Shown: one piece after another, positions 1,834-26,401 of the stretch
How the letters are laid out: the number at the start of each line of letters is the position of its first letter
Numbering within the stretch: position 1 is the stretch's first letter
Source of the DNA: Ignicoccus pacificus DSM 13166
GTDB taxonomy: Archaea > Thermoproteota > Thermoprotei_A > Sulfolobales > Ignicoccaceae
Direction of reading: 5' to 3'
DNA length: 32,000 nt
Assembly (NCBI GenBank): GCA_025340205.1
Contig: CP006868.1
Coordinates: 1,230,001-1,262,000 of the forward strand
Notes under the pieces: model-generated
Told to the model about the DNA's origin: nothing
The model's database searches: none
The model's input: only the letters and a program-made list of their open reading frames with translations
Program-made: the position numbers and the translations under genes

Positions 1834-3024
1834 TTGATTCGAAGATATCTCTTGATTGTGTTAACACTTAGTACGCTAACCTTTGCCGTCCCTCTTAGAT
1901 CCTTAAATATGATAGGCACCTACACATTCGAGTTCTACGGGAGGGGCTTGGTCAAAATAGTCGATATAAAAGTAAATGCCAATCTTTTCAAGTTTTTCCT
2001 CCAGACTACGCCCGCTCCCGTGCAGCTGAAGCAAAACGTTGTTAGGATTACTTATCAAGGCCTAATGGTCGGACCAATACCTTTAGGGTACGTAAAGGAA
2101 ATGGTCAAAGTAAAGTTCAAGGTTGTTACTGATGTACCTCCGAGATATCAAGCGCTGAGGAACATCTTAGGACCCTTGGCAGATAAGCTCTTTATGATGT
2201 GTACCATAACTCCCAACTTCGCTCTAGCTGCAAAGACTGTGGGAGGTACCGCGGGCTTCTATTTAGCAAACAACATAAAATCGTTCTTCTTCTTTGCAAT
2301 TGCACCCTATAATGTTGTACTTAAACCCGGTGACACCTTTGAATTGGTCTACTTCCTCTCCACCACGCCTAGCGTAATAAGTCTCTACGGTAGGAGAGCT
2401 CTAAGCAATCAGTGCAAGTGGGGAGGACCGTGGCTCAGCTTGGTTCCGGACGTCTACAACTTCGGAGGACTTAAGGAATTGACGTTGAGGTACGGTTTCA
2501 TGATACCTGACGCCGTGAAACCGAAGGGATATTGGGATATACCTAAGAACTCTTACGTGGCTGTCAATATAGGAACTACGTTTAACTACCCCGACGTGGG
2601 CACTTGGACCCCCAGCAGGAGTCCCTCCGGTCTAATGACCGTACCCCCGATCGTGGCACCTGTATACATTACCTACACACAAGCTCAACCCCCCTTCCCT
2701 CTCAAGCTCCCAGCGACAATTCCCATAGCGGTGCTCCAGACTGTCGAGGTAGGCTTCCAAAGGAAATGCCCTGGAGACGTGGACTTGGATGGAAAGTACA
2801 CCCTCAGAGACTTCGAGGTCGTCGCGTGTCTAGCAAAGGTCTTAAGCGACACGAAGTTTTGTAAAGAAATACTCGACACCCTACCTCCTCACCTGGTCAA
2901 CCTCGCCACGTTGCTCGGCGATGTGGATAGCAATGGTGTTCTCAACAACGTTGATGCCTTGGTATTGTTGAATATGATAGGACAGAAGTGTCCCTATGCT
3001 GATTACGCACAAGGGATGGGATAA
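1834..3024 (+). CDS. Secreted protein with N-terminal signal/anchor and C-terminal dockerin-like (double Ca-binding loop) module
   Basis: The N-terminus is hydrophobic: MIRRYLLIVLTLSTLTFAVPL. The C-terminus carries two dockerin-type segments, GDVDLDGKYTLRDFEVV and GDVDSNGVLNNVDALVLLNMI, each matching D-x-D/N-x-D/N-G-x5-D followed by a helix. Confidence 0.7.
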   Translation: MIRRYLLIVLTLSTLTFAVPLRSLNMIGTYTFEFYGRGLVKIVDIKVNANLFKFFLQTTPAPVQLKQNVVRITYQGLMVGPIPLGYVKEMVKVKFKVVTDVPPRYQALRNILGPLADKLFMMCTITPNFALAAKTVGGTAGFYLANNIKSFFFFAIAPYNVVLKPGDTFELVYFLSTTPSVISLYGRRALSNQCKWGGPWLSLVPDVYNFGGLKELTLRYGFMIPDAVKPKGYWDIPKNSYVAVNIGTTFNYPDVGTWTPSRSPSGLMTVPPIVAPVYITYTQAQPPFPLKLPATIPIAVLQTVEVGFQRKCPGDVDLDGKYTLRDFEVVACLAKVLSDTKFCKEILDTLPPHLVNLATLLGDVDSNGVLNNVDALVLLNMIGQKCPYADYAQGMG

Positions 3025-3030
3025 AAAGAG

Positions 3031-3288
3031 TTACTCGTTCTTTTTCTTCTGAAGAGACTGGTAGAAGTACCACCACCTCCAGCCCCTTCCGGGTCCCCAC
3101 CAGTAAGGCGGGGGAACCTCCTCGCTGGAAGCTGGAGGTGCTGGGGGCGCGGGAGGCGCTGGAGGGGCCTCTACCTCGCCCTGCTGGTAAAGGTACCACC
3201 AGCACGGGCCGGGGCCTCCTCTGCCTCCCCATCCCCACTTCCTTCCTCTACCTCTGCCTCTTCCTCTACCAAAGCCGAACCAGCTCAT
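3031..3288 (-). CDS. Small low-complexity Gly/Arg/Trp/Pro-rich protein (85 aa)
   Basis: ATG start. A TATA-like box CTTTTATACT (plus-strand coordinates 3318-3327) lies 29 nt upstream. Internal repeat GPGPCWWYLYQQ / GPGRGWRWWYFYQS flanks a PPAPPAPPAPPA linker. N-terminal (GR)n run. Confidence 0.5.
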   Translation of the reverse strand: MSWFGFGRGRGRGRGRKWGWGGRGGPGPCWWYLYQQGEVEAPPAPPAPPAPPASSEEVPPPYWWGPGRGWRWWYFYQSLQKKKNE

Positions 3289-3460: not shown

Positions 3461-3763
3461 ATGAGTTCCCCCCTTCAAGAACCCCGCCGGTCATCTAGTT
3501 CCTTGAACGGGATATCGGTGAAGGTAGTCATTCGTTACGACCCTCATGATCCCCTCGCTAAGGGAATAGCAAGAGTGCTCAAGAAGTACGCAGAAGAGAA
3601 GGGGCTTCAAGCAGAAATGATCGAGGATGGAAAGGACAGTAAATCAAAAATCGTGGTGGAAAGCTTCTGGGGCAGAGGAACGGGACTCGTCGGAGGCATG
3701 GAAGTAATCGAGGGTACATACATCGACGTACAGAGGTTACAAGCGGTAGACAACAAACAATAA
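3461..3763 (+). CDS. Hypothetical protein (100 aa)
   Basis: ATG ORF preceded by a TATA-like box at the leaderless distance. No motif recognised. Confidence 0.45.
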   Translation: MSSPLQEPRRSSSSLNGISVKVVIRYDPHDPLAKGIARVLKKYAEEKGLQAEMIEDGKDSKSKIVVESFWGRGTGLVGGMEVIEGTYIDVQRLQAVDNKQ

Positions 3764-3789: not shown

Positions 3790-5736
3790 TTATCCTTCTA
3801 GTTTTATTAAATATTTGAACTTTCTCTCCAGTTCTTCCTTAGAAGCAATGGTTACCACTACTGTACCTCCACCAGCCGTCGTGAAGGGGCCCTTGCCATG
3901 AGTTTCCCCAAACGCGGTAACCGCTTCCTTGTTGAATTCGTCGTAAATAATTCGGATTATACTCCTTTTGTTCTCACAGTCTGATGCATCCGAATACTCC
4001 AAAGAGTTATATTTCTCAAGACATTTCTCCTTTATCTCGTTTAGGTCTACCCTTTCCCCTGTTCGTTGATGTATCCAACTAGAGGTTATGATTGCCTTTC
4101 CCTTTACCGAGTTCGTTGAGGGATTTTTCTGTAAGGCATCAAAGGTGTCTTTGTCTAGGGGCGTGGGTATGAGTAGATAAACGGTACCCATAGCTCTGGC
4201 CTTCGCTCTTTGAATCTCCGCCTCGACGCCGCCACCCATATGAATGAGGAAATCCATATTCAAAGCGGATTCGCCGTCATGATCAGTAACGTTGATGGTA
4301 TACAAGATCGGAAGTATAACGATTAGTATATCTGACTGTTCCACGTACAAATAGTCGCGGAGCTCTATCTGCGAGTTTATCTGATTTAACATCTCCTGCG
4401 CTATGTATGAATGTTCAAGTACCTCAAACATTATATCAAGAGCTAGGGCCCGTCTGAACCTCTTGTTGACATACTTTAGGAATCCTAGTTCATCATGTAG
4501 CGGTTTGCACTTTTGGTCACAAGAGGGGTACAGAACTTTAGGATGACCTCTGTTAATTACATTCACATAGAACTCAACGTCTTCGAAGGGCCATCTGTTC
4601 ATACAATCAATTACCATGCTCAGTTTCTTGTCTTCTTCGCCCTCAGATCCCTTGGGCTCTTCTCCTAGGAGAGCGGCTTCTATCTCCTCCACTAGACTCT
4701 TACATGTCTCAAGTTTCTTAAAGTAATCAGTCTCATCTTTTCCACTCATCTCATCTTGCATTAACTTTGCGAAGAAAACTCGACCATGCCCCCTTTTTAC
4801 GTTTTCGAGCACCAATTCATCGATAGTAGTTGGTTCGAAGAGTATTAGTTTGGGGAAGAAGTCACGTAACAACTTCTTCGTTTTTTCAATTACATCACAA
4901 ACGCCCTTAACGTCCTTAAGTGGTTGGTCCTCCCTTCTAATTCTCCTGAAAATCGAGATTGGATGGGATACGTAGGCTTTCGTGTAACTTAAGGCATCTT
5001 CAAGATCGGAAGCTAACATTTCAAAGAACCTTATGTGGGTGTCTAGAGGGTACTTCAATGCAAAGATGTAGAATTCAAAGGGCTTTACGAAGCTCAATTT
5101 ACTCCCTTTATCAAGAGCTAGCTCTTGGGAGGAAGTCAAGAAAGTCAAGATATTCACGTCTGCGGCTCTCCACGACATTATCAAGAGGGGATCGATTGGG
5201 TAAACGTCGTCTTTCCGGATGTTGCGACCATTGACGTGCCCTGGCGAGAGGATCTTCTTCAGTTCTTCTTGCCTCTCGGCCAGCCTTCTTAGGATGTCGT
5301 ACCAATCATCGAACAGATAAATTACCTTCACTTCCTCAGCCAACTCTAACAGGGCGGGAAGTATGGGGTTAGGGACTAGCTCATTGGAAGTCGTAATATA
5401 GGATATATGAGTTATGAGTATGACGTGCTTAACGCCATCTTCAGAGTCGCATTTAAGGTTATGACACATCAGCTTGAGAGCTTCCTTGAAGCGATTTAAG
5501 AAGGCTGAGCGGGAGAGGTGTGCGAAGTCTAAGATTATTGGTATTATGTCCACCTTAGTTAACTCTCTTAAATAGTTTTTTTCGAAGTTTATAATTTTGA
5601 ACTTCTTCAGAGGGGAGTCAGGGTTTCTCTCGAGAGCTGCAGCTACTACCTCTCTAACGTAGTTCGAGAGGTTGAGGCCAGTAATGCCAGCAACTACGAT
5701 GATCTTCTTGAGAGGCTTTTGCACGAGCTCTCCCAA
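3790..5736 (-). CDS. Large uncharacterised protein (648 aa); weak hints of an N-terminal degenerate P-loop/Rossmann-like module and a C-terminal NDT/TIR-like Rossmannoid module
   Basis: A long uninterrupted ORF in a lower-GC region (one 60-nt line counted at 25/60 GC). TTG start at 5736 with GTG 12 nt downstream as an alternative. Own TATA-like box at 5764-5773. Motifs seen: KKIIVVAGITGLNLS, VKVIYLFDDWYD, AYVSHPIS, EQSDILIVILP, GGGVEAEIQRAKARAMGTVYLLIP. Confidence 0.8.
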   Translation of the reverse strand: MGELVQKPLKKIIVVAGITGLNLSNYVREVVAAALERNPDSPLKKFKIINFEKNYLRELTKVDIIPIILDFAHLSRSAFLNRFKEALKLMCHNLKCDSEDGVKHVILITHISYITTSNELVPNPILPALLELAEEVKVIYLFDDWYDILRRLAERQEELKKILSPGHVNGRNIRKDDVYPIDPLLIMSWRAADVNILTFLTSSQELALDKGSKLSFVKPFEFYIFALKYPLDTHIRFFEMLASDLEDALSYTKAYVSHPISIFRRIRREDQPLKDVKGVCDVIEKTKKLLRDFFPKLILFEPTTIDELVLENVKRGHGRVFFAKLMQDEMSGKDETDYFKKLETCKSLVEEIEAALLGEEPKGSEGEEDKKLSMVIDCMNRWPFEDVEFYVNVINRGHPKVLYPSCDQKCKPLHDELGFLKYVNKRFRRALALDIMFEVLEHSYIAQEMLNQINSQIELRDYLYVEQSDILIVILPILYTINVTDHDGESALNMDFLIHMGGGVEAEIQRAKARAMGTVYLLIPTPLDKDTFDALQKNPSTNSVKGKAIITSSWIHQRTGERVDLNEIKEKCLEKYNSLEYSDASDCENKRSIIRIIYDEFNKEAVTAFGETHGKGPFTTAGGGTVVVTIASKEELERKFKYLIKLEG

Positions 5737-5763
5737 GAGGAATGTAGACTGCGTGGTTATAGG

Positions 5764-5773
5764 GATTTATGAA
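5764..5773 (-). promoter_or_regulatory. TATA-box-like element (TTCATAAATC) for the 648-aa gene
   Basis: Lies 27 nt upstream of the TTG at 5736. It shares the core ATTCATAAA with the box upstream of the 786-aa gene. Confidence 0.45.
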
Positions 5774-5859
5774 TAAGAAGAAGACAGATTAACTTGGAGA
5801 GTATCAAATTCTAAAAATCTTGCTCAAGTAATGTTTGAGACATCTTTGTTTTCTTTTTC

Positions 5860-5887
5860 TGTAGAGACATATACACGTGTCTCTACA
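5860..5887. other. Perfect 10-bp stem / 8-nt loop hairpin in the spacer between the two large genes
   Basis: TGTAGAGACA (5860-5869) pairs with TGTCTCTACA (5878-5887). It is flanked by the 11-nt direct repeat CAAGTAATGTT at 5825-5835 and 5886-5896. Confidence 0.6.
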
Positions 5888-5933
5888 AGTAATGTTAATA
5901 TCCTTCGATTGCTGGGTAAAGGTAGTTCTCGCC

Positions 5934-8294
5934 CTATTTATGGCGAGAAGCCTCGTAAAAGTGTTGTGGTAAAAGTGTACATTCAGCCTTGAATAGTGCT
6001 ATCCAAGGGAAGATACAACGATCGAGTATCTCGTTATTCGTGTTTATACTTTCACATAATAATGAATCTCCTCCTAGGGAGTATTTCAAGTCGCTTTTTA
6101 TCAGTCCGACTAATCGTTCATGTAGTTTCATGTGAGGTCTCGTTTCTTTTCCTGAACCTCCGATCATCGCTACTAAGCATGACTTCCCTACTGTTTCATT
6201 GATGACACTTTCCATATTTTTACATTTTTCCTCTTGTAGACGCGATAAGAGGAACCTTACTATTAAAGCCATTACGTTAGAGTGGGTACCATATTTCTCT
6301 TCTGTACCTCCCGGTGATAAATCACGAAGAATATCTGAAATTAAAGACTTTTCGCAAGGTGAATTGTTCTCACGCAATAAGAGTAGTGTCATATAATAGA
6401 AGAGTCCATTTTCCTTTCTCCATTCATTACTTAAGAAAGACAAGATGTCGGCGACCTCGCAGTAACCCAAAGACACTTTGCCTGCACTTTTACACTTTCT
6501 TTTTTCTACTATGTATTTCCTCATCAATTTCTTCATACTCTTGCCTCCTGTTGGTCTTTTAAAGACTTCAATTATTTCCATTCCTAATATCAATATTCTT
6601 AGTATCTGGATTGTAAGTATCATCGATGAAATTAACTTTATGCGGCATTGAAGCCTCTTTTTAGCAGTTATATCTGGAGAAGAATAATCATTGACACACT
6701 GTCTAATTTGCTTTATCATATTAGAGAAGAGTTTGGTAATATCGGTCCCGAATAATTCTCTAATAATTAGATCCGAGGGAAGTACATTGGAGATTAGCTG
6801 CTCAACCTTACTGATGAGCTTATAAGCTTCAGTTATACCGTATTCTTCTGTGACTATATCGTTCTTGATTGCCAATATATTTCTTACACCCAAGTTGTTA
6901 TCCATAGCACTAATAATGCTAGATATGAGAGGAAATAAATCCCAAAGGGTCTCACCTTTCTTCTCACTACCATAACAACCTTTCCACCTTCCTTGTTCTA
7001 CTTCTTCTTTTATAGAGTTCCATTTCTCGATGATTGTTGATATCTCTTCTGCACTTACTTTAATAACTTTTTGCAAAATACTATACAATTCGAGGAAAGA
7101 AGAGGGGCTTATTAATGTTAATAATCTGTGGATGATTTCATCTACATACTCTTCAGGTAATTCTTTATTAGCTTGTTGCTTAAATCCACTTAATAATTCT
7201 TGTTGGAGAGTATAGAGAAATTTAGGCATACTTATTTTTCCTTCTGAGGTATCTGCTTCTACTATTTCGTCTCCTTTCTTCTCGACATTCTCTAGCTGGC
7301 TTTCTAAAATGTTCCCGATAGTCACCCAGATCCCCTCTAGGAGACCATAGTAAGAAGGTGGAGGAATGATTGCTATCGGAAAATTCTCTTTATTTACTAT
7401 TTTCTTCAGTATCTTAAACGTCATAGAGAGAGGAAAAATTACCTCCCAGTTGGGTAAGCTTCTCGGAGTATAGTAACTTAGTTCTGTCATAATCGTTTCT
7501 TGTTCTAGAAAATGTATTTTTTGAGAAAGAACACAGTCATACTTTTCTTTTAGAAGCCAATAAAGTATTATAAGCCGAGCGAATTCGTTTATATATATTA
7601 TTTCTGTATTATTACTCCGTTCCTGCTTAGCGATCTCACACAGTTTCGCAGCTACTGCGTTTAATGACTGGACCACAGTAATTGTTAGACCTCGTTTCCC
7701 GAGAACAATAGAGTGAATGGTATCCATGATCTTTTGCACAGCAGTTGAGTTTTCGAAGTTGAGGTACTTAAATGATCTTATAAACCAGTAAAGGAAAGAC
7801 AAGGCACTAAATTCTTCTATGGATAGTCGTAAGGGTTTTAGGTCGCGTAACCTCCCTAACTTGTTGCGCGTTCTAATGATTCCTTTTTCTACTTCAATTT
7901 TATGCAAACCAAACATGCTGTATAACATTCCAAAGGTTGCAAATGCGGTTGAATCACTCAGATAACCCAATCTGGTCCGTGGATTTTCTATATCATCAAG
8001 AATAATATAAATACTGTTGCTTGGTAAGTAATGTCTAACGTTCGACAACAGATTGGCGACATATATGGTACTCGAGGGTACTAGGCTAAGGAGAATTATT
8101 TTGTTTATGTGGTTTCTGATATCAAAATGTTCCATCACATGACTAAGATCTTCGTCATCTATTATATCTTTTATCACATCTCTTGCTCGGATAACTATAT
8201 TTTTCTCAATCCCATCATTCAGATGAGGGATTACTCTATCGAGTAACTGTAATATCACCTCCAATGTGTGAGTTATAGAGGTAGGTTCCTCCAT
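5934..8294 (-). CDS. Very large uncharacterised, apparently all-helical protein (786 aa)
   Basis: A long uninterrupted ATG ORF in the most AT-rich part of the window (single 60-nt lines counted at 17/60 and 25/60 GC, against 30/60 in alaS). Own TATA-like box at 8323-8332. No catalytic motif recognised. Confidence 0.8.
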   Translation of the reverse strand: MEEPTSITHTLEVILQLLDRVIPHLNDGIEKNIVIRARDVIKDIIDDEDLSHVMEHFDIRNHINKIILLSLVPSSTIYVANLLSNVRHYLPSNSIYIILDDIENPRTRLGYLSDSTAFATFGMLYSMFGLHKIEVEKGIIRTRNKLGRLRDLKPLRLSIEEFSALSFLYWFIRSFKYLNFENSTAVQKIMDTIHSIVLGKRGLTITVVQSLNAVAAKLCEIAKQERSNNTEIIYINEFARLIILYWLLKEKYDCVLSQKIHFLEQETIMTELSYYTPRSLPNWEVIFPLSMTFKILKKIVNKENFPIAIIPPPSYYGLLEGIWVTIGNILESQLENVEKKGDEIVEADTSEGKISMPKFLYTLQQELLSGFKQQANKELPEEYVDEIIHRLLTLISPSSFLELYSILQKVIKVSAEEISTIIEKWNSIKEEVEQGRWKGCYGSEKKGETLWDLFPLISSIISAMDNNLGVRNILAIKNDIVTEEYGITEAYKLISKVEQLISNVLPSDLIIRELFGTDITKLFSNMIKQIRQCVNDYSSPDITAKKRLQCRIKLISSMILTIQILRILILGMEIIEVFKRPTGGKSMKKLMRKYIVEKRKCKSAGKVSLGYCEVADILSFLSNEWRKENGLFYYMTLLLLRENNSPCEKSLISDILRDLSPGGTEEKYGTHSNVMALIVRFLLSRLQEEKCKNMESVINETVGKSCLVAMIGGSGKETRPHMKLHERLVGLIKSDLKYSLGGDSLLCESINTNNEILDRCIFPWIALFKAECTLLPQHFYEASRHK

Positions 8295-8322
8295 GGTATC
8301 CCAGACACCTTTTGGTTTTACA

Positions 8323-8332
8323 CTTTTATGAA
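8323..8332 (-). promoter_or_regulatory. TATA-box-like element (TTCATAAAAG) for the 786-aa gene
   Basis: Lies 28 nt upstream of the ATG at 8294. It has the same ATTCATAAA core and spacing as the box at 5764-5773. Confidence 0.45.
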
Positions 8333-8703
8333 TGTTATGATTTGAGAATAAGAGAAGTTTAAATTACAGGCTCTTAAGCCTATTCAATAACGACCTAACC
8401 CCATACCACCGTACCTACCATTTGGAGTATATATAGTATATATTATGAAGCAAATACTATTTCTGAACGTGGTCTACCTCCTTTACTTGACATATTCTTT
8501 AAGTAATTATAAACAATTTTACTCTTGGTGATTATGCAACATTCTGAATTTAAAAGAAATAGGATCTTGTATTACTTAAAAAATTTCTTAAACCTGAATT
8601 TTGTGTAGTTGTAAAATTCGGCTCACGGAATTTTGGGATTCCTCCAAAGTATAGAAAATTTATAAATTCTTTAAAAGAGATAAGGGATTAGGGTGATAAA
8701 GAA

Positions 8704-9252
8704 ATGTTCTCTAAGCAGTTCATCGAGGAGCTAATAGAAGGTATCGACTTAGTTTCACTCTCCTTAGTAGGAAGTGCGAGAAGATCGAAGAGAACAAGAG
8801 ATATTGACTTAGTTGTTATAACAAAGAACGAAATCTCTAGAAAAAAGATAGAAAGTAAAGCGATATCGCTAGGGGTACAAATCTTTCGACCTGACGTGAC
8901 AAGTAATACGTTCTATCCTCTCAAAGAAAGAAACAATATTAACTTAAAGATATTCACCCTCGATGAGTTCAGGAAAATCAAACACGTCCACATGGATAAC
9001 CTAAGGATAGTGTGGAGCCTCCAAGAGGTCAACCTAGCCGGCAAACCCTTAGCTGAACTAGTTAAGCCCTCCTTCCCCAAGAGCTTGAAGGACAAAGCTG
9101 CCGAGCTGAAGGGTCTGAGAAGGAAAGAGCTCTTCTGGGTTCTCGGTACCCAGCTACTAATGGAGGGAACCATGAAGCTTGAGGAGCTCGAGGACTTATC
9201 TAAGGACTTGAAGAGAGGCTTCCAAGTTCTTGCCGAGTACGGCGTTAACTAA
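8704..9252 (+). CDS. Nucleotidyltransferase-domain protein (Pol-beta/minimal NTase fold)
   Basis: The motif LVGSARRSKRTRDIDLVVI matches the hG[GS]-x(8-13)-DhDh signature of minimal nucleotidyltransferases. ATG start. Transcribed divergently from the 786-aa gene across a roughly 400-nt AT-rich spacer. Confidence 0.65.
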   Translation: MFSKQFIEELIEGIDLVSLSLVGSARRSKRTRDIDLVVITKNEISRKKIESKAISLGVQIFRPDVTSNTFYPLKERNNINLKIFTLDEFRKIKHVHMDNLRIVWSLQEVNLAGKPLAELVKPSFPKSLKDKAAELKGLRRKELFWVLGTQLLMEGTMKLEELEDLSKDLKRGFQVLAEYGVN

Positions 9253-9307: not shown

Positions 9308-9408
9308 GCCGCCGTAGCTCAGCCGGCAGAGCGCCGGCCTTGTAGCGTCTCTCGGTCCTTGCGCGGGAAAGCCGGTGGTCGCGGGTTCAAGTCCCGCCGG
9401 CGGCTCCA
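9308..9408 (+). tRNA. tRNA-Thr (anticodon UGU) with a roughly 25-nt intron at the canonical 37/38 position and an encoded CCA
   Basis: Hand-folded. Acceptor GCCGCCG/CGGCGGC. D-arm GCTC-AGCCGGCA-GAGC. Anticodon stem CCGGC/GCCGG with loop CU-UGU-A, interrupted at 9345-9369. Variable loop TGGTC. T-arm GCGGG-TTCAAGT-CCCGC. Discriminator U, then CCA. Confidence 0.85.
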
Positions 9409-9626: not shown

Positions 9627-9992
9627 TCAAGAGGGGAGGCAACCATACTCAAAAATGAGATCTAGTATTAACTCTACTATCCTTTCGAAGAACTTAGCGA
9701 GGGCATCCTCGTTAAAGTCGTTCACTATCAGCTTTTCCCATAGCTCTTGCAGAGACACTGCGACGTCGTGTATCCTCTCTATCACTTCCTCGGGCAGTTC
9801 CTCTGGTTCATCGCAAACTGGGACTAACTCACCCGCGATCTCTAGAAATACTCCGAAGTCAACTGAAGGAGCTCCCGTCCAAGAGGTCTCCAACAGTCGG
9901 AAGTGTAGCTCTTCAGCCTTCTTGGCGGCGAAATCGACCCATTGGTCTATATCTGCTTCTTTTCCTTCAGGGGCGTTCTTCCCCACCATCAT
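9627..9992 (-). CDS. Small acidic hypothetical protein, paralog A (121 aa)
   Basis: Clear similarity to the ORF at 10400-10708: ETSWTG vs NTEWTG, and LQELWEKLIVNDFNEDALAKFFERIVELILDL vs IQGEWEKVIESEFNEDVMAQWFENIINYLLNL. Confidence 0.6.
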   Translation of the reverse strand: MMVGKNAPEGKEADIDQWVDFAAKKAEELHFRLLETSWTGAPSVDFGVFLEIAGELVPVCDEPEELPEEVIERIHDVAVSLQELWEKLIVNDFNEDALAKFFERIVELILDLIFEYGCLPS

Positions 9993-10399
9993 TCCGCACC
10001 AAGTAATACTATCACCCTTCTCTTATAAAGATTATATCGGATTGAGTATATTCATTATATCTAATTGGTAAAAAATATAATTACTAAATATGGGAATTTT
10101 AGAATATATTAATGCACAAACCGGATTATGTTGAAAATGCAGCACCATCAACTTTAGAAGGTGACAGAATGAGATCCTCAGAAAGCTCTCCCCCAGAAAA
10201 TTTCGGTAGAAGGAATTTTGGGGAGAAGGAAAATTTCTGGGTAGTAATACTGTAAAAGCTAAGGACCCCCTATCCCGCACTAAAAGTTGGTCGAAGAACA
10301 AGGAAGGAGTAAGTAGCTAAACGTAATACGAAGAGTTATCAAGGAAACGTTACTCAAATAAAAGAAAAAGAGAAGGATGAAAAAAGTATCATATGGGTA

Positions 10400-10708
10400 T
10401 CATATGTCTTCCAAGTTAAGTAGGTAATTTATGATGTTTTCGAACCATTGTGCCATTACATCTTCATTGAACTCGCTCTCAATTACCTTCTCCCACTCTC
10501 CTTGAATTAGTTCAGCAAGACCATAAGCTTTCTTTACAAGCTTCTCAGAGAGCTCTCCAGAGGGCGGGCGGTAGATCTTAACTATCATTGGAATGGCAAT
10601 GTCATTAACTATCCTTATGAAGTCTTGTGCGGTTCCTGTCCACTCAGTATTAACGAGCGAAGACCACGCTTCTTCCACTATGAGGCCTAGCTCCTCTGCA
10701 CTAACCAT
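10400..10708 (-). CDS. Small acidic hypothetical protein, paralog B (102 aa)
   Basis: Paralog of 9627-9992 on the same strand, separated from it by about 400 nt of AT-rich non-coding sequence. Confidence 0.6.
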   Translation of the reverse strand: MVSAEELGLIVEEAWSSLVNTEWTGTAQDFIRIVNDIAIPMIVKIYRPPSGELSEKLVKKAYGLAELIQGEWEKVIESEFNEDVMAQWFENIINYLLNLEDI

Positions 10709-11025
10709 ATGGCATTACCCTGTATCTCATAACGAATTCTTCCTTATGAATCTTTCTTGGGCATTTAGTATTACCAATAATACAGCAATTTGAAAATAAC
10801 AATTTCAAAACTTGGGATCACTTGAAATACATCAAAGAGTTCTAGAGAGAGGCTGCAATTCTTTTAGCTGAAATCTCAAACGAAGAGAAGTCGAGGACGC
10901 TTGAAATTGCAGTAGCCACAAATTTGTTTTCAAGTAAAATCCATCCTACCGAATTTTGATAGGGAAGAATTCCTTGGATCTCCTGGGTTCATGAAAGGCT
11001 AACGCTTAAGAAAAAGAATTCAGAT

Positions 11026-13526: not shown

Positions 13527-16199
13527 TCATATTTTGGAGCTAAGTTCCTTGAGGAAGGCTTGCACCTCCTCCTCGCTCTTGCACACCGCCGTAGCCCTAG
13601 CCCCCTTTCCTCCTCCCTTACATATCCCTATTTGCCTTATCATCTTGCCTAAGCCTATATCTTTAGGAGCCGCTAGCTCCACTCTGTTCCCCACTATTAC
13701 AGCTGCTACGGAATCGGAGCTGAGCTCCCTCAGCACCTCTTGTGCTAACTCCGGATCCTCCAAGTCCATCTTCAGTACCTTGAGCTTTCCAAGGCTCTCA
13801 GCCTTCTTCACGTACAGCTCCTTTAAGGCCTTTCTATACTTATTGAGAAGCTCCCTTTCCTTCCTCTCCCTCTCCAGCAAGCTCTCAATTCTCTTTACGA
13901 GAGCACTCTTGTCTCCGCCCACCTTGCTCGCCGCTTCCTCCAAGGTCCTCTCCATCTCCTGAGCGACTTCTGCGACCCTTGTAGCAGCGACGTACTCGAG
14001 CCTCACCACACCGTCTTGTATCTTCCTAGTGGATATCACCTTGAGAGCCCCGACCTCTCCCGTATTTGCTAGATGAGTTCCAAAACATGCTTGGATGTCC
14101 CAGCCCTCTATCTCCACCAGCCTTATCTCCTTGTCCATAGGAACTCCTCCTTGATATATGGTGAACCAGTACTTGGCCTCAGCCTCGTTTCTAGGTAACG
14201 TGAAGGTCCTTACCTTTCTCCTCTCATCTATTATCTTGTTGGCCTCTCTCTCAATCGCCTCTATCTGCTCCTTAGTTAATGGCCTGTGATGGGTTATGTC
14301 CAGCCTGGCCTTCTCCGGGGTCTTCTCGGCTCCCGCTTGCCAAACGTGATCTCCCAAGACCTTCCTGGCAGCTGCTAGGATCACGTGGGTACCAGTGTGG
14401 TGCCTCATCAACCTATACCTCCTTATCCAGTCTATTTCCCCTACCACCAAGCTTCCCTTCTCTCCTTGGAATGGCTCGTTGAGAACGTGAACTATCACTC
14501 CTCCGACCTTCTGAACGTCCCTTACCTCATACTCCTTCTCTCCTTTGTAGATCTTCCCTCTGTCCGCCATCTGACCTCCTCCTTCAGGGTAGAAGGCCGT
14601 CTGATCGAGAACCAAGTAGTTATCCTTGTAGTCGATTACCCTGGCATCGAACCTCCTCATGTAAGGATCCTCGTGGAAGAGCCTCCTCGTCTCCGGAAGG
14701 CCCTTGGCCCACTCTATTATCTCTTTAGGTAGCTTGGCCTTCTCCTCCGCTCCCTTTACCCTTCTGACCTCTTTCTGGTGCCTAGAGGCTACCAAGGCGT
14801 AGAAGTTCCTGGGAACCTCCACCTTCACCCCAAGCCTCTCTCCTACCTCTTGGACCACCTCTGGGGGAATCCCGTGGCTGTCGTAGAGGGTGATTAGGTC
14901 ATCTAGTTCTATTTTCTTCTTCCTCTTCAATATCCTCTCGACCATCCTAGTTCCCTTCCTCAAAGCTTCCCTGAACTTGTTTTCCTCGTATTCAACGGCA
15001 TCCAAGATGTACTCCTTGTTCTTCCAAGCCCTTGGGTATTGGTCCTTCCAGTACTCGAGCTGCATCTTCACTAACTCCACTAGGGGAACCTCTGCCTTGA
15101 GCTTCCAAAGAGCTCTCAAGGCTCTCCTTATGACCAGCCTTGCGAGATATCCCTCGCCGGTGTTGGAGGGAACTATTCCGTCCCCCAACATCCACATTAT
15201 CGTTCTGGTATGATCGAGAACTTGGTAGACCAAGGAGGCCCTTTGGTGGAGCTCCCTTATCTCCTCAACGCTCATTCCCAAGTACTCGGAAGCCCTCTTG
15301 TAGGCCCTCTCTATGGTTTCCGGCTCGTCGGGATCCATGAGTCCAGCGGACCTCACCAAGGAGTAGAGGAGCTCCTCCGGAGGCTCTTCAACTCCCAGCT
15401 TCTCGTGGAAGCGCTTGAGCAAGTCGCCGTAAATGGCGTGGAAGGCCGTTGGAGTCTTCTGGGTGAACCAAGCTATCCTCTCTATTCCGTATCCCGTATC
15501 AACGACTTTGAGCTTCATGGGTATATATTCCTTCTTTCCGTTTTCCTTTACCTCATATTGCATGAAGACCAAGGTAGCCAGCTCCAAGCCCGCTATGGTC
15601 ACCTCGAAGGATGGTCCGGCGTTTCCTCCTCCCTCCCACCAGCTCTCCTTGAAGTTGATCAGCTCCTCTGGAATTCCCAGCCTTTCCGTGAAGAACTCGA
15701 AGGCTAGCCTTACTGTCTCCTCCTTCCAATAAACCTCCTTGTCCGGATAATTGAAAGCGTGATGTCCTCCCATCTCGAAGCCTGTCATGTGCCTTCCTAG
15801 AGTCAGGCCCACGTTGTCTATGTCCTCCAACCTTATGCAAGGCTGGGAGATGACTAGGGGATTTGCCGGGGGAGGCACTATTCCCTTGGTCACGTGAGGC
15901 TGGAAGACCACGATGCTCGCTATTGTTAGGAAGAGGTCGTCCCTCCACCTAGCCACGACGGGTCTGGGCTCGACTATGGTGTGACCGTGCTCCTCGAAGA
16001 ACTTGAGGAACTCTCTCCTCGCTTCCGGAAAGCTAAGTTTCCTCTTAGTGGGAACGTCAAAGAACTCGTACTCTTGGCAAGGAGCGTCTCCGCAGACCTC
16101 GTGCTCTCCCTTGGTCCAGAAGTAGGTTCCACACACCTTACACTTCTTCCTCTTGAAGCCGTTTTCCTCAAAGAACTTCAGGCGATACTCTTGCTCCAC
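13527..16199 (-). CDS. alaS: Alanine--tRNA ligase (archaeal type)
   Basis: 890 aa. N-terminal Zn-like CKVCGTYFW...CGDAPC, class II core, editing-domain motifs HTGTHVI and CFGTHL, and a C-terminal DHHA1-like tail. GTG start. Confidence 0.97.
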   Translation of the reverse strand: MEQEYRLKFFEENGFKRKKCKVCGTYFWTKGEHEVCGDAPCQEYEFFDVPTKRKLSFPEARREFLKFFEEHGHTIVEPRPVVARWRDDLFLTIASIVVFQPHVTKGIVPPPANPLVISQPCIRLEDIDNVGLTLGRHMTGFEMGGHHAFNYPDKEVYWKEETVRLAFEFFTERLGIPEELINFKESWWEGGGNAGPSFEVTIAGLELATLVFMQYEVKENGKKEYIPMKLKVVDTGYGIERIAWFTQKTPTAFHAIYGDLLKRFHEKLGVEEPPEELLYSLVRSAGLMDPDEPETIERAYKRASEYLGMSVEEIRELHQRASLVYQVLDHTRTIMWMLGDGIVPSNTGEGYLARLVIRRALRALWKLKAEVPLVELVKMQLEYWKDQYPRAWKNKEYILDAVEYEENKFREALRKGTRMVERILKRKKKIELDDLITLYDSHGIPPEVVQEVGERLGVKVEVPRNFYALVASRHQKEVRRVKGAEEKAKLPKEIIEWAKGLPETRRLFHEDPYMRRFDARVIDYKDNYLVLDQTAFYPEGGGQMADRGKIYKGEKEYEVRDVQKVGGVIVHVLNEPFQGEKGSLVVGEIDWIRRYRLMRHHTGTHVILAAARKVLGDHVWQAGAEKTPEKARLDITHHRPLTKEQIEAIEREANKIIDERRKVRTFTLPRNEAEAKYWFTIYQGGVPMDKEIRLVEIEGWDIQACFGTHLANTGEVGALKVISTRKIQDGVVRLEYVAATRVAEVAQEMERTLEEAASKVGGDKSALVKRIESLLERERKERELLNKYRKALKELYVKKAESLGKLKVLKMDLEDPELAQEVLRELSSDSVAAVIVGNRVELAAPKDIGLGKMIRQIGICKGGGKGARATAVCKSEEEVQAFLKELSSKI

Positions 16200-16301: not shown

Positions 16302-16690
16302 ATGACCTCAGAGGTCTACGAGGCATTGTGGAGGAGAGCCAAGGTCCTCTTGAGGGAGGCGGAAAGGCTATTGAACGAAGGAGAATATGATCTAAGTCTA
16401 GTCATGTCCGAACAAGCGGCTCAGCTCGCCGTTAAGGCGGAAATATACATGCTTATCGGAGAAATCCCCAAAGGTCACAACTTGAGGAGGCTCCTCGGAT
16501 ATCTCGCTTCCTTAAGAGACGATGAGAGCTTAAAGGAGTTCGTCTCTAAAACCGAGATGTGTTAATTACGTTGGAGGAGGCCTATCTAGAAGGAAGATAC
16601 GCGGTCCCTTACTATACAAAGGAAGAGGCCGAGGAGGGATTGAGGATTGCAAGAGAACTACATAAAGCCCTTAGACAAGTTCATGGTTGA
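16302..16690 (+). pseudogene. HEPN-domain protein (toxin-type partner of the downstream MNT), interrupted by a frameshift near 16547-16565
   Basis: The 87-aa track ORF carries the HEPN N-terminal part (...EGEYDLSLVMSEQAAQLAVKAEIYMLIGEIPKGHNLRRLL...). The -1 frame continues with the expected C-terminal part NRDVLITLEEAYLEGRYAVPYYTKEEAEEGLRIARELHKAL and stops at 16688-16690. The switch falls at an AAAA run (16547-16550). Confidence 0.7.
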
Positions 16691-16997
16691 GACCTACAAG
16701 CTCCTCATGAAGTACTGGAGGGAAGTGGCGGAGAGGGTAGCTGAAACGTGTCTCGATCTCTGCGAGGACTGTGAGGTTTACGTAATTGGAAGCGTCGCCA
16801 GGGGAACGGCAACTGCCCTAAGCGATCTGGACGTCTTGGTAGTCGTTCCTAGGAAGTGTGAGCCGAGAGCTTTGAAGAAAAAGGTTTTGAGGAAGGTAAT
16901 TTGGAATATTCCTTACGATTATCCTTTGAACTTACATATCGTTCAGAAAGGAGAAGAAGAAAAGTGGTTGAGGAAGGGATTCGTGAAGATAAAGTGA
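16683..16997 (+). CDS. Minimal nucleotidyltransferase (MNT, antitoxin-type partner of HEPN)
   Basis: The motif VIGSVARGTATALSDLDVLVVV is the classic GSxxRG...DxD signature. The ATG at 16683 overlaps the reconstructed HEPN stop (ATGGTTGA). The track start at 16647 is probably too early. Confidence 0.8.
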   Translation: MVETYKLLMKYWREVAERVAETCLDLCEDCEVYVIGSVARGTATALSDLDVLVVVPRKCEPRALKKKVLRKVIWNIPYDYPLNLHIVQKGEEEKWLRKGFVKIK

Positions 16998-17003
16998 ACT
17001 CAA

Positions 17004-17171
17004 TCACTTACAGAGCTCTTCGCACATCTCCTTACACTCTCTGACCTCATCTCCGCACTGCTCGAAGCAGTCCACTCCCAGCTCTAGGTTTTCAAGGCAA
17101 TACCTTACGCACCTCTCTCCCGCCCTCTCGCAATCGGCTTGGCAGTTGGATAGACAAAGTAAGGACGTCAC
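17004..17171 (-). CDS. Small cysteine-rich protein (55 aa) with a repeated CxxxC ladder
   Basis: Own translation: VTSLLCLSNCQADCERAGERCVRYCLENLELGVDCFEQCGDEVRECKEMCEELCK. The GTG start is preceded by GAGGTAGAGGTAG (SD-like). Below the ORF-track length cutoff. Confidence 0.4.
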   Translation of the reverse strand: MTSLLCLSNCQADCERAGERCVRYCLENLELGVDCFEQCGDEVRECKEMCEELCK

Positions 17172-17346
17172 CTACCTCTACCTCTAGAATATCTCTTACC
17201 TTGAGCATAATATGCTTTCAAGAGAAGCTGACCTTAGGTACCTTGATACTCTAATAAAAAAGAGGGAAAAGTGAAAGTAACTAAATCGCTATCCTAAATC
17301 ACCTAGACTTTTAGGTAATTATGTGTAGCTTCGCAAGGGTCTCCCT

Positions 17347-17898
17347 TTGTCCCTCTTGGAAGAGCTTCAAAGGAAGGCAAACGAGGAAAGAAAGTATCCA
17401 AACGATCAAGAGTTCTTGGAGAGGAAGGCAATTGATGTCGTTTGCGAAATGATAAAAACAAAAGAGTTACTCGAAGAGGGAGACACAAGGAACGCCGCTG
17501 GCAAGGCCTTCCAAGCTTGGAAGGATCTGCTTTCATGCTTGATCTGCTTGAACTTGGATAAGATAGCAAGAGATGAGAAGGAGAAAGAGTGGTACATCAA
17601 GAGCGGAGTCCTAGTTTCCACAAGCAAGATGAGGAGGCTAGCCCAAAAGCTGGAGGAAATAGGGATACAGAACGTCTTATCATGGACCTCTGTTGCTTTG
17701 GACCTTCACACCTACCAGTACAATGGCCCCGATCCGGATGGTGTGTGGTACGGGCCTAGAGATGAGGAAGAGGCAAGGGAGGACATTAAGCTCTTACTCG
17801 AAGCTACTAAGGAGTACTTGGAGAGGTATGTTCTTCCTAACATTAAGGGAAAGAGCTTGGAGATGATAAGGGAAGGACTGAAGTTGCTTAAGGGTTAA
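17347..17898 (+). CDS. PaREP1-like (HEPN-related helical) protein
   Basis: 183-aa ORF with TTG start. The pattern EEGDTRNAAGKAFQAWKDLLSCL ... ALDLHTYQYNG resembles, from memory, the archaeal PaREP1 family consensus (eG...A..K.w.A ... LH..fY.g). Confidence 0.5.
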   Translation: MSLLEELQRKANEERKYPNDQEFLERKAIDVVCEMIKTKELLEEGDTRNAAGKAFQAWKDLLSCLICLNLDKIARDEKEKEWYIKSGVLVSTSKMRRLAQKLEEIGIQNVLSWTSVALDLHTYQYNGPDPDGVWYGPRDEEEAREDIKLLLEATKEYLERYVLPNIKGKSLEMIREGLKLLKG

Positions 17899-17968: not shown

Positions 17969-18697
17969 TTGACTGAGCTCATTTACTACAAGGATCCCTA
18001 CGTGAAGACGTTTGAAGCGAGGGTAGTAAAGGTCCTTCCAGAGGAGAGCGCTATAGTCCTTGACAGAACCGCTTTCTACCCTGAGTCCGGAGGCCAACCC
18101 TACGACACTGGGAGGATAGTTTGGGAGGGAGGAGAGGCAAAGGTAGTCAACGTTCAGTTCAAGGGAGACGAAGTTTATCACTATTTGGAAGGTGCTCTTC
18201 CTCCTGAAGGGAGTATTATTAAAGGAGAGATAGACTGGGACAGGAGATACAAGCTCATGAGATCTCATACCCTAGCTCATCTGCTAATGGCTGCCGTTAA
18301 CGAGAAGTTCAGAGAGAAGGTCCCCGTGGTCGGCTCGGGACTGGGTCTCGAGGAAAGTAGAATGGACTTCAAGGCTAAGATAAAGAAGGACGACCTAAAG
18401 GAAATAGATGACATCATAAGGAAGTGGGTAGAAGAGGGAAGGGAGGTAAAGATACACTTGTTCGAGGACCCTGAGGAAGCCAAGAAGCTCCTAGATAGCT
18501 ACGGCATTCAAGGAGGAGAGCTGACGGAGGAGCACTTACAGAAGAGGCCCATAAGAATAATCGAGATAGTTGGAGTGAACGCCGATCCTTGCGGAGGTAC
18601 CCATTTGAAGAACACGAAGGAGGTAGGAGAATTCAAGTTGGTAAAGAGGGAGAGTAAGGGGAAGGGAGTGACGAGGATAAGGTTCAAGGTCCTTTAG
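17969..18697 (+). CDS. alaX: Alanyl-tRNA editing protein AlaX (AlaRS editing-domain homologue)
   Basis: RTAFYPESGGQPYDTG, HTLAHLL and CGGTHLKNTKEVG are the Thr/Ala-tRNA synthetase second-additional-domain Zn motifs (HxxxH, CxxxH). 242 aa. Confidence 0.9.
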   Translation: MTELIYYKDPYVKTFEARVVKVLPEESAIVLDRTAFYPESGGQPYDTGRIVWEGGEAKVVNVQFKGDEVYHYLEGALPPEGSIIKGEIDWDRRYKLMRSHTLAHLLMAAVNEKFREKVPVVGSGLGLEESRMDFKAKIKKDDLKEIDDIIRKWVEEGREVKIHLFEDPEEAKKLLDSYGIQGGELTEEHLQKRPIRIIEIVGVNADPCGGTHLKNTKEVGEFKLVKRESKGKGVTRIRFKVL

Positions 18698-20944: not shown

Positions 20945-21346
20945 TCAACAGCTCATAGAAGGGTAAAGGACTCCAAGCCTTCGATCTAAGGTCACCAAGT
21001 AATCCACCTTGTAGGTCTTAGCTACTTGGAGCAAGGTAGAATCTGTAAAGCTCAGCGCGGGGGCTCTTTCCTTGTATATCTCCCACGCCTTTATTACTAT
21101 ATCAAGCGTTGTGGGAATCACTCTGAAGGCGTTCTTTTCGAAGAAGAGGGATCCGAGCTTGAGGCATCCCTCCCTTCCGAGTCTCCGAGAGGCGTAGCTT
21201 AGGACCTCGTCTATTACGTAATCGGTAACCGCCGGAACCCCTAGTTCCCCCTTCAGTATCCTTACCATGAGTCTCTTACACTTACTGTGGTTAACATCCC
21301 TCTTGTTGAAAGCCGCTAATATGACACCAGTGTCTAAGAGGATCAA
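20945..21346 (-). CDS. vapC: PIN-domain ribonuclease toxin VapC
   Basis: MILLDTGVILA (first acidic residue), DYVIDEV, FTDSTLL and LVTLDRRL. 133 aa. There is a 4-nt overlap with the upstream small gene. Confidence 0.85.
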   Translation of the reverse strand: MILLDTGVILAAFNKRDVNHSKCKRLMVRILKGELGVPAVTDYVIDEVLSYASRRLGREGCLKLGSLFFEKNAFRVIPTTLDIVIKAWEIYKERAPALSFTDSTLLQVAKTYKVDYLVTLDRRLGVLYPSMSC

Positions 21347-21606
21347 GAGTAGAGCACCTCGTCCACCTCCTCCGAGGACTTCTCCGGTCCCTCGAAGGAG
21401 AGCTCCTCCAGCACCTCCTCCGCGCTCTCCAAGGGTCTCCAGAGGCCGAGCCTTACCTTGAGCTTCTCCAAGTCCTCACTGGCTACATCAACGATAGCGT
21501 CAATGAGCTCCACTAACTTCACCTTCCTTCCCGTCTCCAGCGTCAGCCTAGCTTGCATCTCCTCCAATCTCCTCTTCGCCCTCCTGCTCACCTTTATGCT
21601 CTCCAC
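21343..21606 (-). CDS. vapB: VapB-type antitoxin
   Basis: 87-aa ORF overlapping the vapC start (ATGA). The N-terminal IKVSRRAKRRLEEMQARL...LVELIDAIV resembles archaeal VapB antitoxins. Confidence 0.7.
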   Translation of the reverse strand: MESIKVSRRAKRRLEEMQARLTLETGRKVKLVELIDAIVDVASEDLEKLKVRLGLWRPLESAEEVLEELSFEGPEKSSEEVDEVLYS

Positions 21607-25582: not shown

Positions 25583-26401
25583 ATGGGTCGAGCTTCCCCT
25601 AGGTGCTCACGAGTGCTCTGCTACTACCCGGGCTGTAGCGCTAAGGGAATAGGCAAGGACATGGACGAGGCGGTAAAGGCGGTTGCTGAGAAGCTGGGAA
25701 TAGATTACAAGGAGATCGAGGGCTGGTCTTGCTGCGGAGCTGGAGTAGTGGACGACGCCTCTCCTCTAGGAGCCGCTATCCTGGCCCACGGAAACATGGC
25801 CTTGGCGAAGGAGCAGAGGTGTGACAAGGTCTTCACCGCTTGCGGCATATGCTTCTTCCAGTTCATGAAGTGGAAGGGAAAGGTAAAGCAGAACGAAGCA
25901 CTGAAGGAGAAGGTTGAGGAGGCGCTGAAGTCTCACTTCCTCGAGCCCGCCGATGTGGAGGTGCTTCACTTCATCGAGTTACTTGCTGAGAAGCTGACTG
26001 ATGACGATATCGTGAGGCCTCTACCCTATCTGAAGGTAGCGATATACCCTGGATGTCAAGCCAAGAGGGGACTAGCGGCTAAGGGAAAGAACGCCTTCAA
26101 GCTCATGGAAGACATACTCAAAAAGCTCCAAGTTGAGATAGGCCCTAGGATCGACTTCTGCTGCGGTTTCCCCTCCTCCACCTACGACAAAAGGAATTCC
26201 AAGAAGATGGCCGAGGAAGTGGTCAGGAGGAGTCTGGACGCTGACGTAATAGTCACGCTGTGTCCGTTCTGTCAATACCACATAGACACGACCGTCAAGG
26301 GGAAGCCCATAGTCCACCTCCACCAGCTGGTAGGCTTGGCCTTGGGCATAGAACCCGAGAAGCTTGGTCTGCATAGACACAATAACAAACTCGAAATATG
26401 A
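25583..26401 (+). CDS. Two-CCG-domain iron-sulfur protein (heterodisulfide reductase subunit B / LutA-like)
   Basis: Two Cys-rich CCG repeats: YYPGCS...WSCCGAG...ACGICF and IYPGCQ...FCCGFP...LCPFCQ. Confidence 0.8.
   Translation: MGRASPRCSRVLCYYPGCSAKGIGKDMDEAVKAVAEKLGIDYKEIEGWSCCGAGVVDDASPLGAAILAHGNMALAKEQRCDKVFTACGICFFQFMKWKGKVKQNEALKEKVEEALKSHFLEPADVEVLHFIELLAEKLTDDDIVRPLPYLKVAIYPGCQAKRGLAAKGKNAFKLMEDILKKLQVEIGPRIDFCCGFPSSTYDKRNSKKMAEEVVRRSLDADVIVTLCPFCQYHIDTTVKGKPIVHLHQLVGLALGIEPEKLGLHRHNNKLEI

Follow-up and report, generated by a model that had tools for sequence, protein, structure and literature searches.

A 32,000-nucleotide (nt) window of the Ignicoccus pacificus DSM 13166 genome (contig CP006868.1, positions 1,230,001 to 1,262,000; all window coordinates below count from its first letter) contains two long, same-strand open reading frames (ORFs) near a tRNA-Thr gene. 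The 648-aa ORF, here p648, is IPA_07195 and the 786-aa ORF, p786, is IPA_07200; both are annotated as hypothetical proteins. An original prediction, made from the sequence alone, had read the two as a single undescribed system, acquired horizontally beside the tRNA gene and possibly acting in conflict or defence. Both ORFs are indeed present and annotated in the genome, and neither large protein belongs to a known family: p648 gave nothing significant, and p786 (searched in Pfam as the whole protein and as five fragments) no match, in Pfam, NCBIfam, PADLOC, PHROGs or PDB sequences. On balance, we favour a different account of the region, in which it is a composite of two unrelated pieces and not one two-gene system, with p648 as an enzyme resembling nucleoside 2-deoxyribosyltransferase (NDT) that is paired with a small convergent gene, p100. 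The evidence for this account comes from base composition, from the junction of an AT-rich block with a neighbouring gene, and from the genomic context of p648 relatives.

Two grades of base composition

Relative to a background GC content of 0.502 +/- 0.029, taken from 500-nt windows outside the region, maximum-likelihood change points delimit an AT-rich block of ~3.2 kb with a GC of ~0.355, 5 standard deviations (SD) under the background. At the left change point, position 5757 in the promoter region of p648, GC falls from 0.44 to 0.354; at the right one, positions 8953-8955, it rises from 0.32 to 0.51 at codon 83 of a divergent nucleotidyltransferase (NTase) ORF, IPA_07205. Between these points lie p786, a 409-nt divergent promoter region (GC 0.30) and NTase codons 1-83. 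p786 itself has a GC of 0.363, a third-codon-position GC (GC3) of 0.35 and a codon-usage z of -4.4 (synonymous-codon log-likelihood, in SD relative to other genes), and its GC3 stays uniformly at 0.22-0.43 along all 786 codons, compared with 0.55-0.71 in the neighbouring genes. p648 is only mildly atypical, since its values (GC 0.435, GC3 0.50, z -2.2) sit at the lower limit of what native genes show and do not fall far outside; for p100 the codon-usage z is -3.5. The foreign-looking composition that had been ascribed to positions 3790-8703 as a whole is therefore real, above all in p786, but it comes in two grades, and the strongly AT-rich part is ~5757-8954. As in a genomic island, the compositional deviation has sharp edges, although the edge does not coincide with the tRNA gene. 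The block is probably a recently acquired segment, and a foreign origin of p786 is supported.

p786 is an ORFan. A full HMMER search of 1.84 billion (1.84e9) representative proteins and a word-indexed search of 5.8 billion (5.8e9) proteins each retrieved p786 alone, and no relatives were found among INPHARED phages, IMG/VR or PLSDB plasmids. The 5.8-billion-protein collection holds no detectable homologue of p786 or of p648 from another Ignicoccus genome. That nothing was transferred at all, and that p786 and p648 are both native, lineage-specific genes that evolve fast and owe their low GC to weak selection or low expression, is unlikely: drift does not predict abrupt change points at both ends of the block, one of them in an ORF, the low GC3 of p786 is uniform and its codon usage deviant, and the protein lacks homologues in other Ignicoccus genomes, even at low similarity. 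In favour of such an explanation, the GC3 of p648 overlaps that of low native genes (a creatininase-like gene at 0.49 and p396, a secreted-protein gene described below, at 0.55), and it would agree with the finding of no mobility genes and with the many lineage-specific hypothetical genes of hyperthermophilic Crenarchaeota.

The spacer between p786 and p648 measures 197 nt, and a TATA-like box can be read upstream of each gene (Table 1); the same 9-mer, ATTCATAAA, occurs upstream of both. The spacer also holds a hairpin that is not a typical terminator, since an A-rich run and no T-run comes next on the coding strand.

A mosaic nucleotidyltransferase ORF at the right edge of the block

A divergent minimal nucleotidyltransferase (MNT) had been reported beside the block, and this identification stands: the 182-aa product of IPA_07205 matches PF01909 weakly (E 0.0055, aa 5-74) and carries a G-S...D-I-D motif. 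As in MNT/KNTase-like members of PF01909, the G-S...D-x-D signature lies in an N-terminal catalytic domain that is followed by a helical C-terminal half. Two features set the ORF apart: it is compositionally chimeric, and it has no adjoining HEPN partner of the kind found in MNT-HEPN modules, whereas a bona fide HEPN-MNT pair sits at 16302-16997. GC3 is 0.39 in codons 1-83 and 0.67 after them (Fisher P 1.8e-4), and the 85-codon GC3 jump is 0.28, whereas 169 comparisons within native genes gave 0.19 at most. The catalytic domain is AT-rich with the block, while the helical C-terminal half, in the same frame, is native-like. A PADLOC match of IPA_07205 to PDC-S09 (E 0.037) is at noise level.

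We propose that a ~3.2-kb AT-rich segment was recently gained from an unsampled lower-GC donor, and that it would have brought with it p786, including the promoter of this gene, together with the catalytic 5' half of the NTase gene. The right junction interrupts the NTase ORF without shifting its frame, as would be expected if a resident gene for this two-domain protein had recombined with a diverged incoming allele. The most economical mechanism would therefore be an allelic or homeologous replacement in the resident NTase gene that dragged p786 in; integrase-mediated insertion into tRNA-Thr appears less likely. Composition, then, points to acquisition by recombination and not by site-specific integration.

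The contents of the block can also be read as a unit made of p786 and the divergent NTase, that is, as an MNT-type toxin-antitoxin or conflict module on AT-rich DNA to which p648 is an unrelated neighbour. The block holds exactly p786, the shared 409-nt promoter region and the NTase catalytic half, and MNT-type NTases in the window are paired with partners, as exemplified by HEPN 16302-16565 and MNT 16647-16997. We consider this pairing quite unlikely, in that the NTase motif is present but p786 shows no HEPN or other partner-domain signature, is 5-8 times the size of typical MNT partners and has no second example; moreover, the native 3' half of the NTase suggests that this gene was resident before the block arrived. 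A HEPN domain in p786 was sought and rejected: neither the whole protein nor its fragments match a Pfam HEPN family, the fragments match no Pfam family at all, and the sole Rx4-6H string (Rx5H, aa 719) is fortuitous.

Similarly little weight is given to a more far-reaching proposal, according to which the block would be a fragment of an unsampled Ignicoccus mobile element or virus, or of AT-rich episymbiont DNA, with p786 founding a new family and a new NTase-coupled conflict module; independently of it, p648 and p100 would form a nucleotide-cleaving, NDT-like effector with a small partner. To our knowledge, there is no known virus of the genus Ignicoccus. AT-rich patches that carry ORFans are found commonly among archaea.

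The tRNA-Thr gene and the question of integration

The tRNA gene near the block is an intron-containing tRNA-Thr, as the original prediction had stated. Rfam model RF00005 places a tRNA at 9308-9405 (60.8 bits), and manual removal of the 25-nt intron at 9345-9369 (position 37/38) leaves a canonical tRNA-Thr(TGT). ARAGORN miscalls the gene in both of its modes, as Arg(CCT) of 87 nt in the default no-intron mode and as Ser(TGA) with an intron at 35 in the intron mode, which constitutes an annotation pitfall for intron-containing archaeal tRNAs.

The further suggestion, that this gene had been the target of integration, is not supported. Pfam revealed no integrase in the 29 main window ORFs (those at 25583-26401 and 26398-27996 were left unscanned), and neither a repeat finder nor a scan with 16-mers and 20-mers from the tRNA +/- 45 nt, at 2 and 4 mismatches, respectively, detected a tRNA-derived direct repeat in the whole window. 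Between the block and the tRNA lie ~350 nt of native-composition sequence, including the NTase 3' half. The region resembles tRNA-targeting archaeal elements and islands in that a compositionally foreign block of a few kb carries an ORFan and has a tRNA within 400 nt. It differs from them in lacking an integrase and a repeat of a tRNA segment, in the position of the block, which lies 5' of the tRNA, and in having one edge within a protein-coding ORF. The tRNA adjacency appears incidental.

An undescribed p648 family with a probable small convergent partner

p648 belongs to an undescribed family of three members: p648, P0003 and an ORF at a locus denoted L038. P0003 (571 aa; 25% identity over 80% query coverage, E 8e-28) is encoded at locus L001 of the metagenome-assembled genome (MAG) GCA_054025115.1. 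The L038 relative, added by a metagenome scan, is a 569-aa ORF (L038:78-1787, contig Ga0256831_1017754) with 27% identity to p648. Both relatives stem from uncultured archaea; a profile re-search and IMG/VR yielded no others, and phage and plasmid collections gave none either. The literature offered nothing about islands of I. pacificus, nor about the MAG and metagenome accessions.

The p648 homologue in L001 has native composition (GC 0.445; contig 0.44), and its neighbours encode a fumarase, eS25, TrkH, a KaiC-like ATPase, a DUF5591 protein and an NAD synthase. The DUF5591 (archaeosine-synthase-like) gene lies divergently upstream of it. In both L001 (8449-13456) and L038 (78-3305), a convergent gene of 73 or 75 aa comes next after the p648 homologue, which it overlaps by 4 nt, and beyond it lies a gene for an S26-like membrane peptidase. 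No p786-like gene neighbours the p648 homologue at either locus. The peptidase at these loci is a multi-pass protein of ~400 aa with a C-terminal S26/S24 signal-peptidase-like domain. p396 was ruled out as its counterpart in I. pacificus, being secreted and beta-rich with dockerin-like repeats.

In I. pacificus, the relative position and orientation of p100 match those of the 73/75-aa genes. When a profile of the L038 and L001 small proteins was aligned to p100 with hhalign, the score was 19.4, compared with 10.5 +/- 2.0 for shuffled p100, none of 200 shuffles reaching 19.4, and p100 ranked 1st among the 71 window ORFs of 60-160 aa. p100 is thus the probable counterpart of the 73/75-aa convergent genes. 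As judged from gene order and profile similarity, the conserved pair is p648 and p100, not p648 and p786, and we infer a functional link between its two members. According to this account, p648 and p100 would be an older or separately acquired pair that has been kept in two uncultured archaeal genomes.

Some observations on p100 and on related loci may be added. The exact 100-aa translation of p100 is absent from the protein collection, such that the gene is either unannotated or uses another start; TTG at codon 15 and GTG at codon 20 are possible alternatives. A match of p100 to PADLOC PbeB (E 0.0031, 15.7 bits, 31 residues) was treated as noise. The thiolase neighbour, used as a synteny anchor, led to two Desulfurococcales MAGs (87-88% identity) that are not syntenic. 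On the contig of the closest-thiolase MAG (87%), a 651-aa ORF (L003 28-1983, - strand) has a local GC of 0.35-0.38 versus ~0.44; it was discarded as a relative of p648 or p786, as it shows no tblastn similarity to either.

Predicted domain layout and chemistry of p648

For p648 we propose a layout of three parts: an N-terminal alpha/beta domain (aa ~10-245) with a Walker-A-like loop devoid of Lys, an NDT/DNPH1-like core with insertions (aa ~250-530) that contains the invariant residues D461 and E507, and a C-terminal tail that carries a conserved G-x-F-x-T-x-GGG loop. The core was predicted from the motif pattern first and then tested, with Lactobacillus leichmannii NDT and human DNPH1 as references, checked against PDB 1F8X and human DNPH1 entries (for example, 4P5E). 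In p648, the motifs follow one another in the order of NDT/DNPH1 (PF05014): beta1 'AYVSHPI', beta2 'LILFEPT', the helix and strand 'QIExRDYxYVxQSDhhIhh', and 'G-h-[ED]-A-E-I-Q-R-A...hYhhhP'. In this register, E507 would take the place of the catalytic Glu and D461 that of the sugar-binding Asp. An NDT/DNPH1-like core in the p648 family is, in our estimation, probable.

The best local hhalign alignment of the p648 family to DNPH1 falls in the predicted register, with 'SQIELRDYLYVEQSDILIVI...GGGVEAEIQRAKARAMGTVYLLIP' on 'RLIHEQDLEWLQQADVVVAE...SLGVGYELGRAVAFNKRILCLFRP'. Its score is 22 (P ~0.013, probability ~3%), and reversed controls score 10-14. In this low-probability alignment, E507 (AEIQRA) is placed on the catalytic Glu of DNPH1 'GYELGRA' and D461 (RDY) on the Asp of 'EQDLEW', that is, on the combination that marks the PF05014 superfamily, a Glu nucleophile within a Gly-rich loop following beta4 and a conserved Asp in the preceding helix. 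Both residues are invariant in 3/3 family members. When two insertions were removed, PF05014 was the sole match among 24,736 Pfam families for P0003 (E 4.2e-4, 20.9 bits) and for the L038 protein (E 7.3e-4, 20.1 bits); with unedited 98-aa fragments of the same two proteins, it was again the sole match, at E 0.12 and 0.19 and 12-13 bits. The unedited full-length L038 protein also matched phrog_355, 'nucleoside 2-deoxyribosyltransferase', weakly (E 0.052). Set against NDT and DNPH1, which are single-domain proteins of 140-170 aa, p648 has its putative core split by insertions, one of ~130 aa and another of ~20 aa, and adds an N-terminal domain of ~245 aa and a C-terminal tail of ~110 aa. No internal duplication was found between the N-domain and the C-domain.

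The N-domain resembles P-loop NTPases and kinases in that, where a Walker A would lie, it has the strand-loop-helix 'K-I-h-h-h-A-G-[TI]-[ST]-G-x-[GN]-L', and in the later strands 'hhhhxH' and 'hIYhxxDxYD'. The loop reads AGTSGTGL or AGITGLNL (GxxGxG-L-R or N-L-S), and because the Walker A lysine and Ser/Thr are absent in 3/3 members, the domain fails the motif that defines P-loop proteins. A regular-expression search for Walker A GxxxxGK[ST] found none in p648 or p786, and the N-domain profile matched the KaiC Walker-A at noise level (E 0.54).

In our working model, p648 would be a nucleotide or nucleoside N-glycosidase or transferase. Its core would be Rossmannoid, with a flavodoxin-like fold of three layers, and DNPH1/nucleoside-2-deoxyribosyltransferase-like, with Glu507 as the nucleophile and Asp461 holding the sugar, and the degenerate, Lys-less P-loop-like N-domain and the Gly-rich C-terminal loop may serve as ligand-binding or regulatory modules. 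Both the NDT-like fold and the chemistry are predictions from sequence patterns.

One system or two

The view that p648 and p786 constitute a single undescribed system for defence or conflict, gained horizontally and inserted at tRNA-Thr, draws on their arrangement, as the genes adjoin on the same strand, have GC below average and encode large proteins without known domains, with a tRNA gene and an NTase next door and toxin-antitoxin modules elsewhere in the window. An NDT-like domain would, in addition, suit NAD- or nucleotide-depleting effectors such as that of retron Ec86 (PMC13276650). Several observations nevertheless make this view very unlikely. L001 and L038 carry a p648 homologue alone, without a p786-like gene and in housekeeping-type contexts, and p786 has no homologue, so co-occurrence cannot be shown. 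The two genes fall into different composition classes, with the change point at 5757 between them, and a separate TATA-like box precedes each of them. The window ORFs scanned include no integrase, an attachment-site repeat is absent as well, and native sequence separates the block from the tRNA. Finally, no PADLOC, PHROG, phage, IMG/VR or plasmid match was obtained.

The proposed role in conflict or defence has to be considered apart from the question of one system or two. Some defence systems use NDT-like effectors, such as that of retron Ec86 (review PMC13276650). p648 possibly belongs to the same catalytic superfamily and, if so, its chemistry would be similar, namely N-glycosidic cleavage of NAD+ or nucleotides. 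It differs from these effectors in that no PADLOC model, those of retron effectors included, matches the p648 family, that no reverse transcriptase, non-coding RNA or other sensor lies near p648, and that its relatives reside amid housekeeping-type genes. More broadly, PADLOC-DB 2.0 gave no match for p648, p786, P0003, the L038 protein or sub-constructs of them. A defence role is neither supported nor excluded by these results, and the context of the p648 relatives suggests nucleotide metabolism just as readily as conflict.

p786 as a gene and a protein

p786 is a real, intact gene: it has 786 open codons at 36% GC, a coding-type GC pattern and a TATA-like box. At this GC content, stops are expected at ~0.07 per codon, or ~55 by chance in 786 codons, and there are none, which rules out chance as the origin of so long an ORF; GC by codon position follows GC1 0.42 > GC3 0.35 > GC2 0.32, and purines are in excess on the coding strand. 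That p786 is non-functional, a decaying remnant or an annotation artefact, as its lack of homologues and low-confidence structure prediction might suggest, is hardly credible in view of these properties and of the TATA-like box at -33. The position of this box, ATTCATAAAAG, would favour ATG 8294, as a leaderless start, over the annotated start.

The protein has no internal repeats (self-BLAST) and no Cys clusters. It is predicted to be mostly alpha-helical after aa ~160, with one hydrophobic helix at aa 552-578 that has charged residues inside. A single-sequence AlphaFold2 (AF2) model is unusable, with a predicted local distance difference test (pLDDT) score of 38, and hints at a mostly helical protein. 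p786 is probably soluble and mostly helical, as far as these predictions go.

Points that weigh against the composite account

A number of findings weigh against our account of the region and, in particular, against the NDT-like assignment of p648. The PF05014 gathering score of 28.8 bits is not reached, the best scores being 20-21 bits, and the I. pacificus p648 itself gives no PF05014 match. The best PF05014 E-values required the cutting of a 17-22-aa insertion that was chosen with the hypothesis in mind. The hhalign probability to DNPH1 is under 4%, and when the profile of the de-inserted NDT-like core was run against the PDB, no relevant match came up. AF2 reached a pLDDT of 32 for the alignment of p648 and P0003 and of 38 for p786, and both models failed; a Foldseek search with the pLDDT-32 model (template-modelling score, TM, < 0.2) is meaningless and was disregarded. 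As for p100, BLASTP detects no significant similarity to its small relatives, and the similarity found by hhalign is an alignment of 34 columns. Recombination in the NTase gene as the mechanism is based on composition only, and the absence of the block from sister Ignicoccus is derived from protein searches and not from synteny. Lastly, the same-strand adjacency of p786 and p648 could reflect a functional link that is specific to this organism.

Other features of the window

Coordinates are compiled in Table 1. Toxin-antitoxin-type genes had been noted elsewhere in the window, and a HEPN/MNT pair, a PaREP1 gene and a PIN gene were found. These modules, at 16302-17898 and 20945-21606, have native composition and stand amid housekeeping genes. 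An AlaX-like editing-domain protein is encoded near AlaRS.

Just 3' of tRNA-Thr, in and beside a second AT-rich patch (9900-11000, GC 0.39), IPA_07215 and IPA_07220 encode small, acidic, helical paralogues that share 33% identity over 88 aa (E 7e-14) and match no family. On the other side of the region, a candidate 85-aa ORF lies in a GC-rich stretch (GC 0.62-0.66); its low-complexity product would comprise FGFGRGRGRGRGR, GPGPCWWYLYQ, (APP)n and GPGRGWRWWYFYQ, in that order. A short DNA repeat, GGAGGTGCTGGGGG, occurs at 1756, 3134 and 3152. p396 has a signal-peptide-like N-terminus, a beta-rich body and, at the C-terminus, two dockerin/EF-hand-like repeats, DVDLDGKYTLRDF and GDVDSNGVLNNVDALVLLN. 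No Pfam family matches p396 at E < 0.01.

Table 1. Coordinates, strand and description of features in the 32,000-nt window.
Feature	Position	Strand	Description
p396	1834-3024	+	396 aa
Candidate 85-aa ORF	3031-3288	-	85 aa
p100, small ORF	3461-3763	+	100 aa; convergent with p648, 26 bp apart
p648 / IPA_07195	3790-5736	-	648 aa; TTG start
AT-rich block	~5757-8954	none	GC ~0.355; maximum-likelihood change points
TATA-like box ATTCATAAAT	5765-5774	-	~32 nt upstream of p648 TTG; read from sequence
Hairpin GTAGAGACA-CGTGTATA-TGTCTCTAC	5861-5886		Perfect 9-bp stem, 8-nt loop; in p786/p648 spacer
p786 / IPA_07200	5934-8294	-	786 aa; ATG start at 8294; annotated start 8264, giving 776 aa (10 codons shorter)
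TATA-like box ATTCATAAAAG	8323-8333	-	~33 nt upstream of ATG 8294 of p786; read from sequence
IPA_07205, NTase ORF	8704-9252	+	182 aa; divergent from p786
tRNA-Thr(UGU)	9308-9408	+	25-nt intron 9345-9369 at 37/38; CCA encoded
IPA_07215	9627-9992	-	121 aa
IPA_07220	10400-10708	-	102 aa
AlaRS	13527-16199		
HEPN	16302-16565		87 aa; E 5e-18; pairs with MNT 16647-16997
MNT	16647-16997		116 aa
PaREP1	17347-17898		183 aa
AlaX-like	17969-18697		Editing-domain protein
PIN	20945-21346		133 aa; with overlapping 87-aa upstream ORF (region 20945-21606)

Implications

Two points from this region are worth following up, and only these two: the junction in the mosaic NTase gene, and the rare family to which p648 belongs, probably NDT-like. 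The junction would be a mark of recombination with foreign DNA and would exemplify the gain of a gene within a resident gene, without an integrase, in a hyperthermophilic archaeon. p786 also provides a caution, in that a long orphan ORF in foreign DNA near a tRNA is not by itself a system. p648, P0003 and the L038 protein make up a three-member, undescribed family with a probable DNPH1/NDT-like core, an unusual three-domain architecture and a small partner gene beside it. If the N-glycosidase prediction is true, this family would represent a new architecture for the superfamily that serves nucleotide sanitation as well as NAD+- and nucleotide-depleting immunity.

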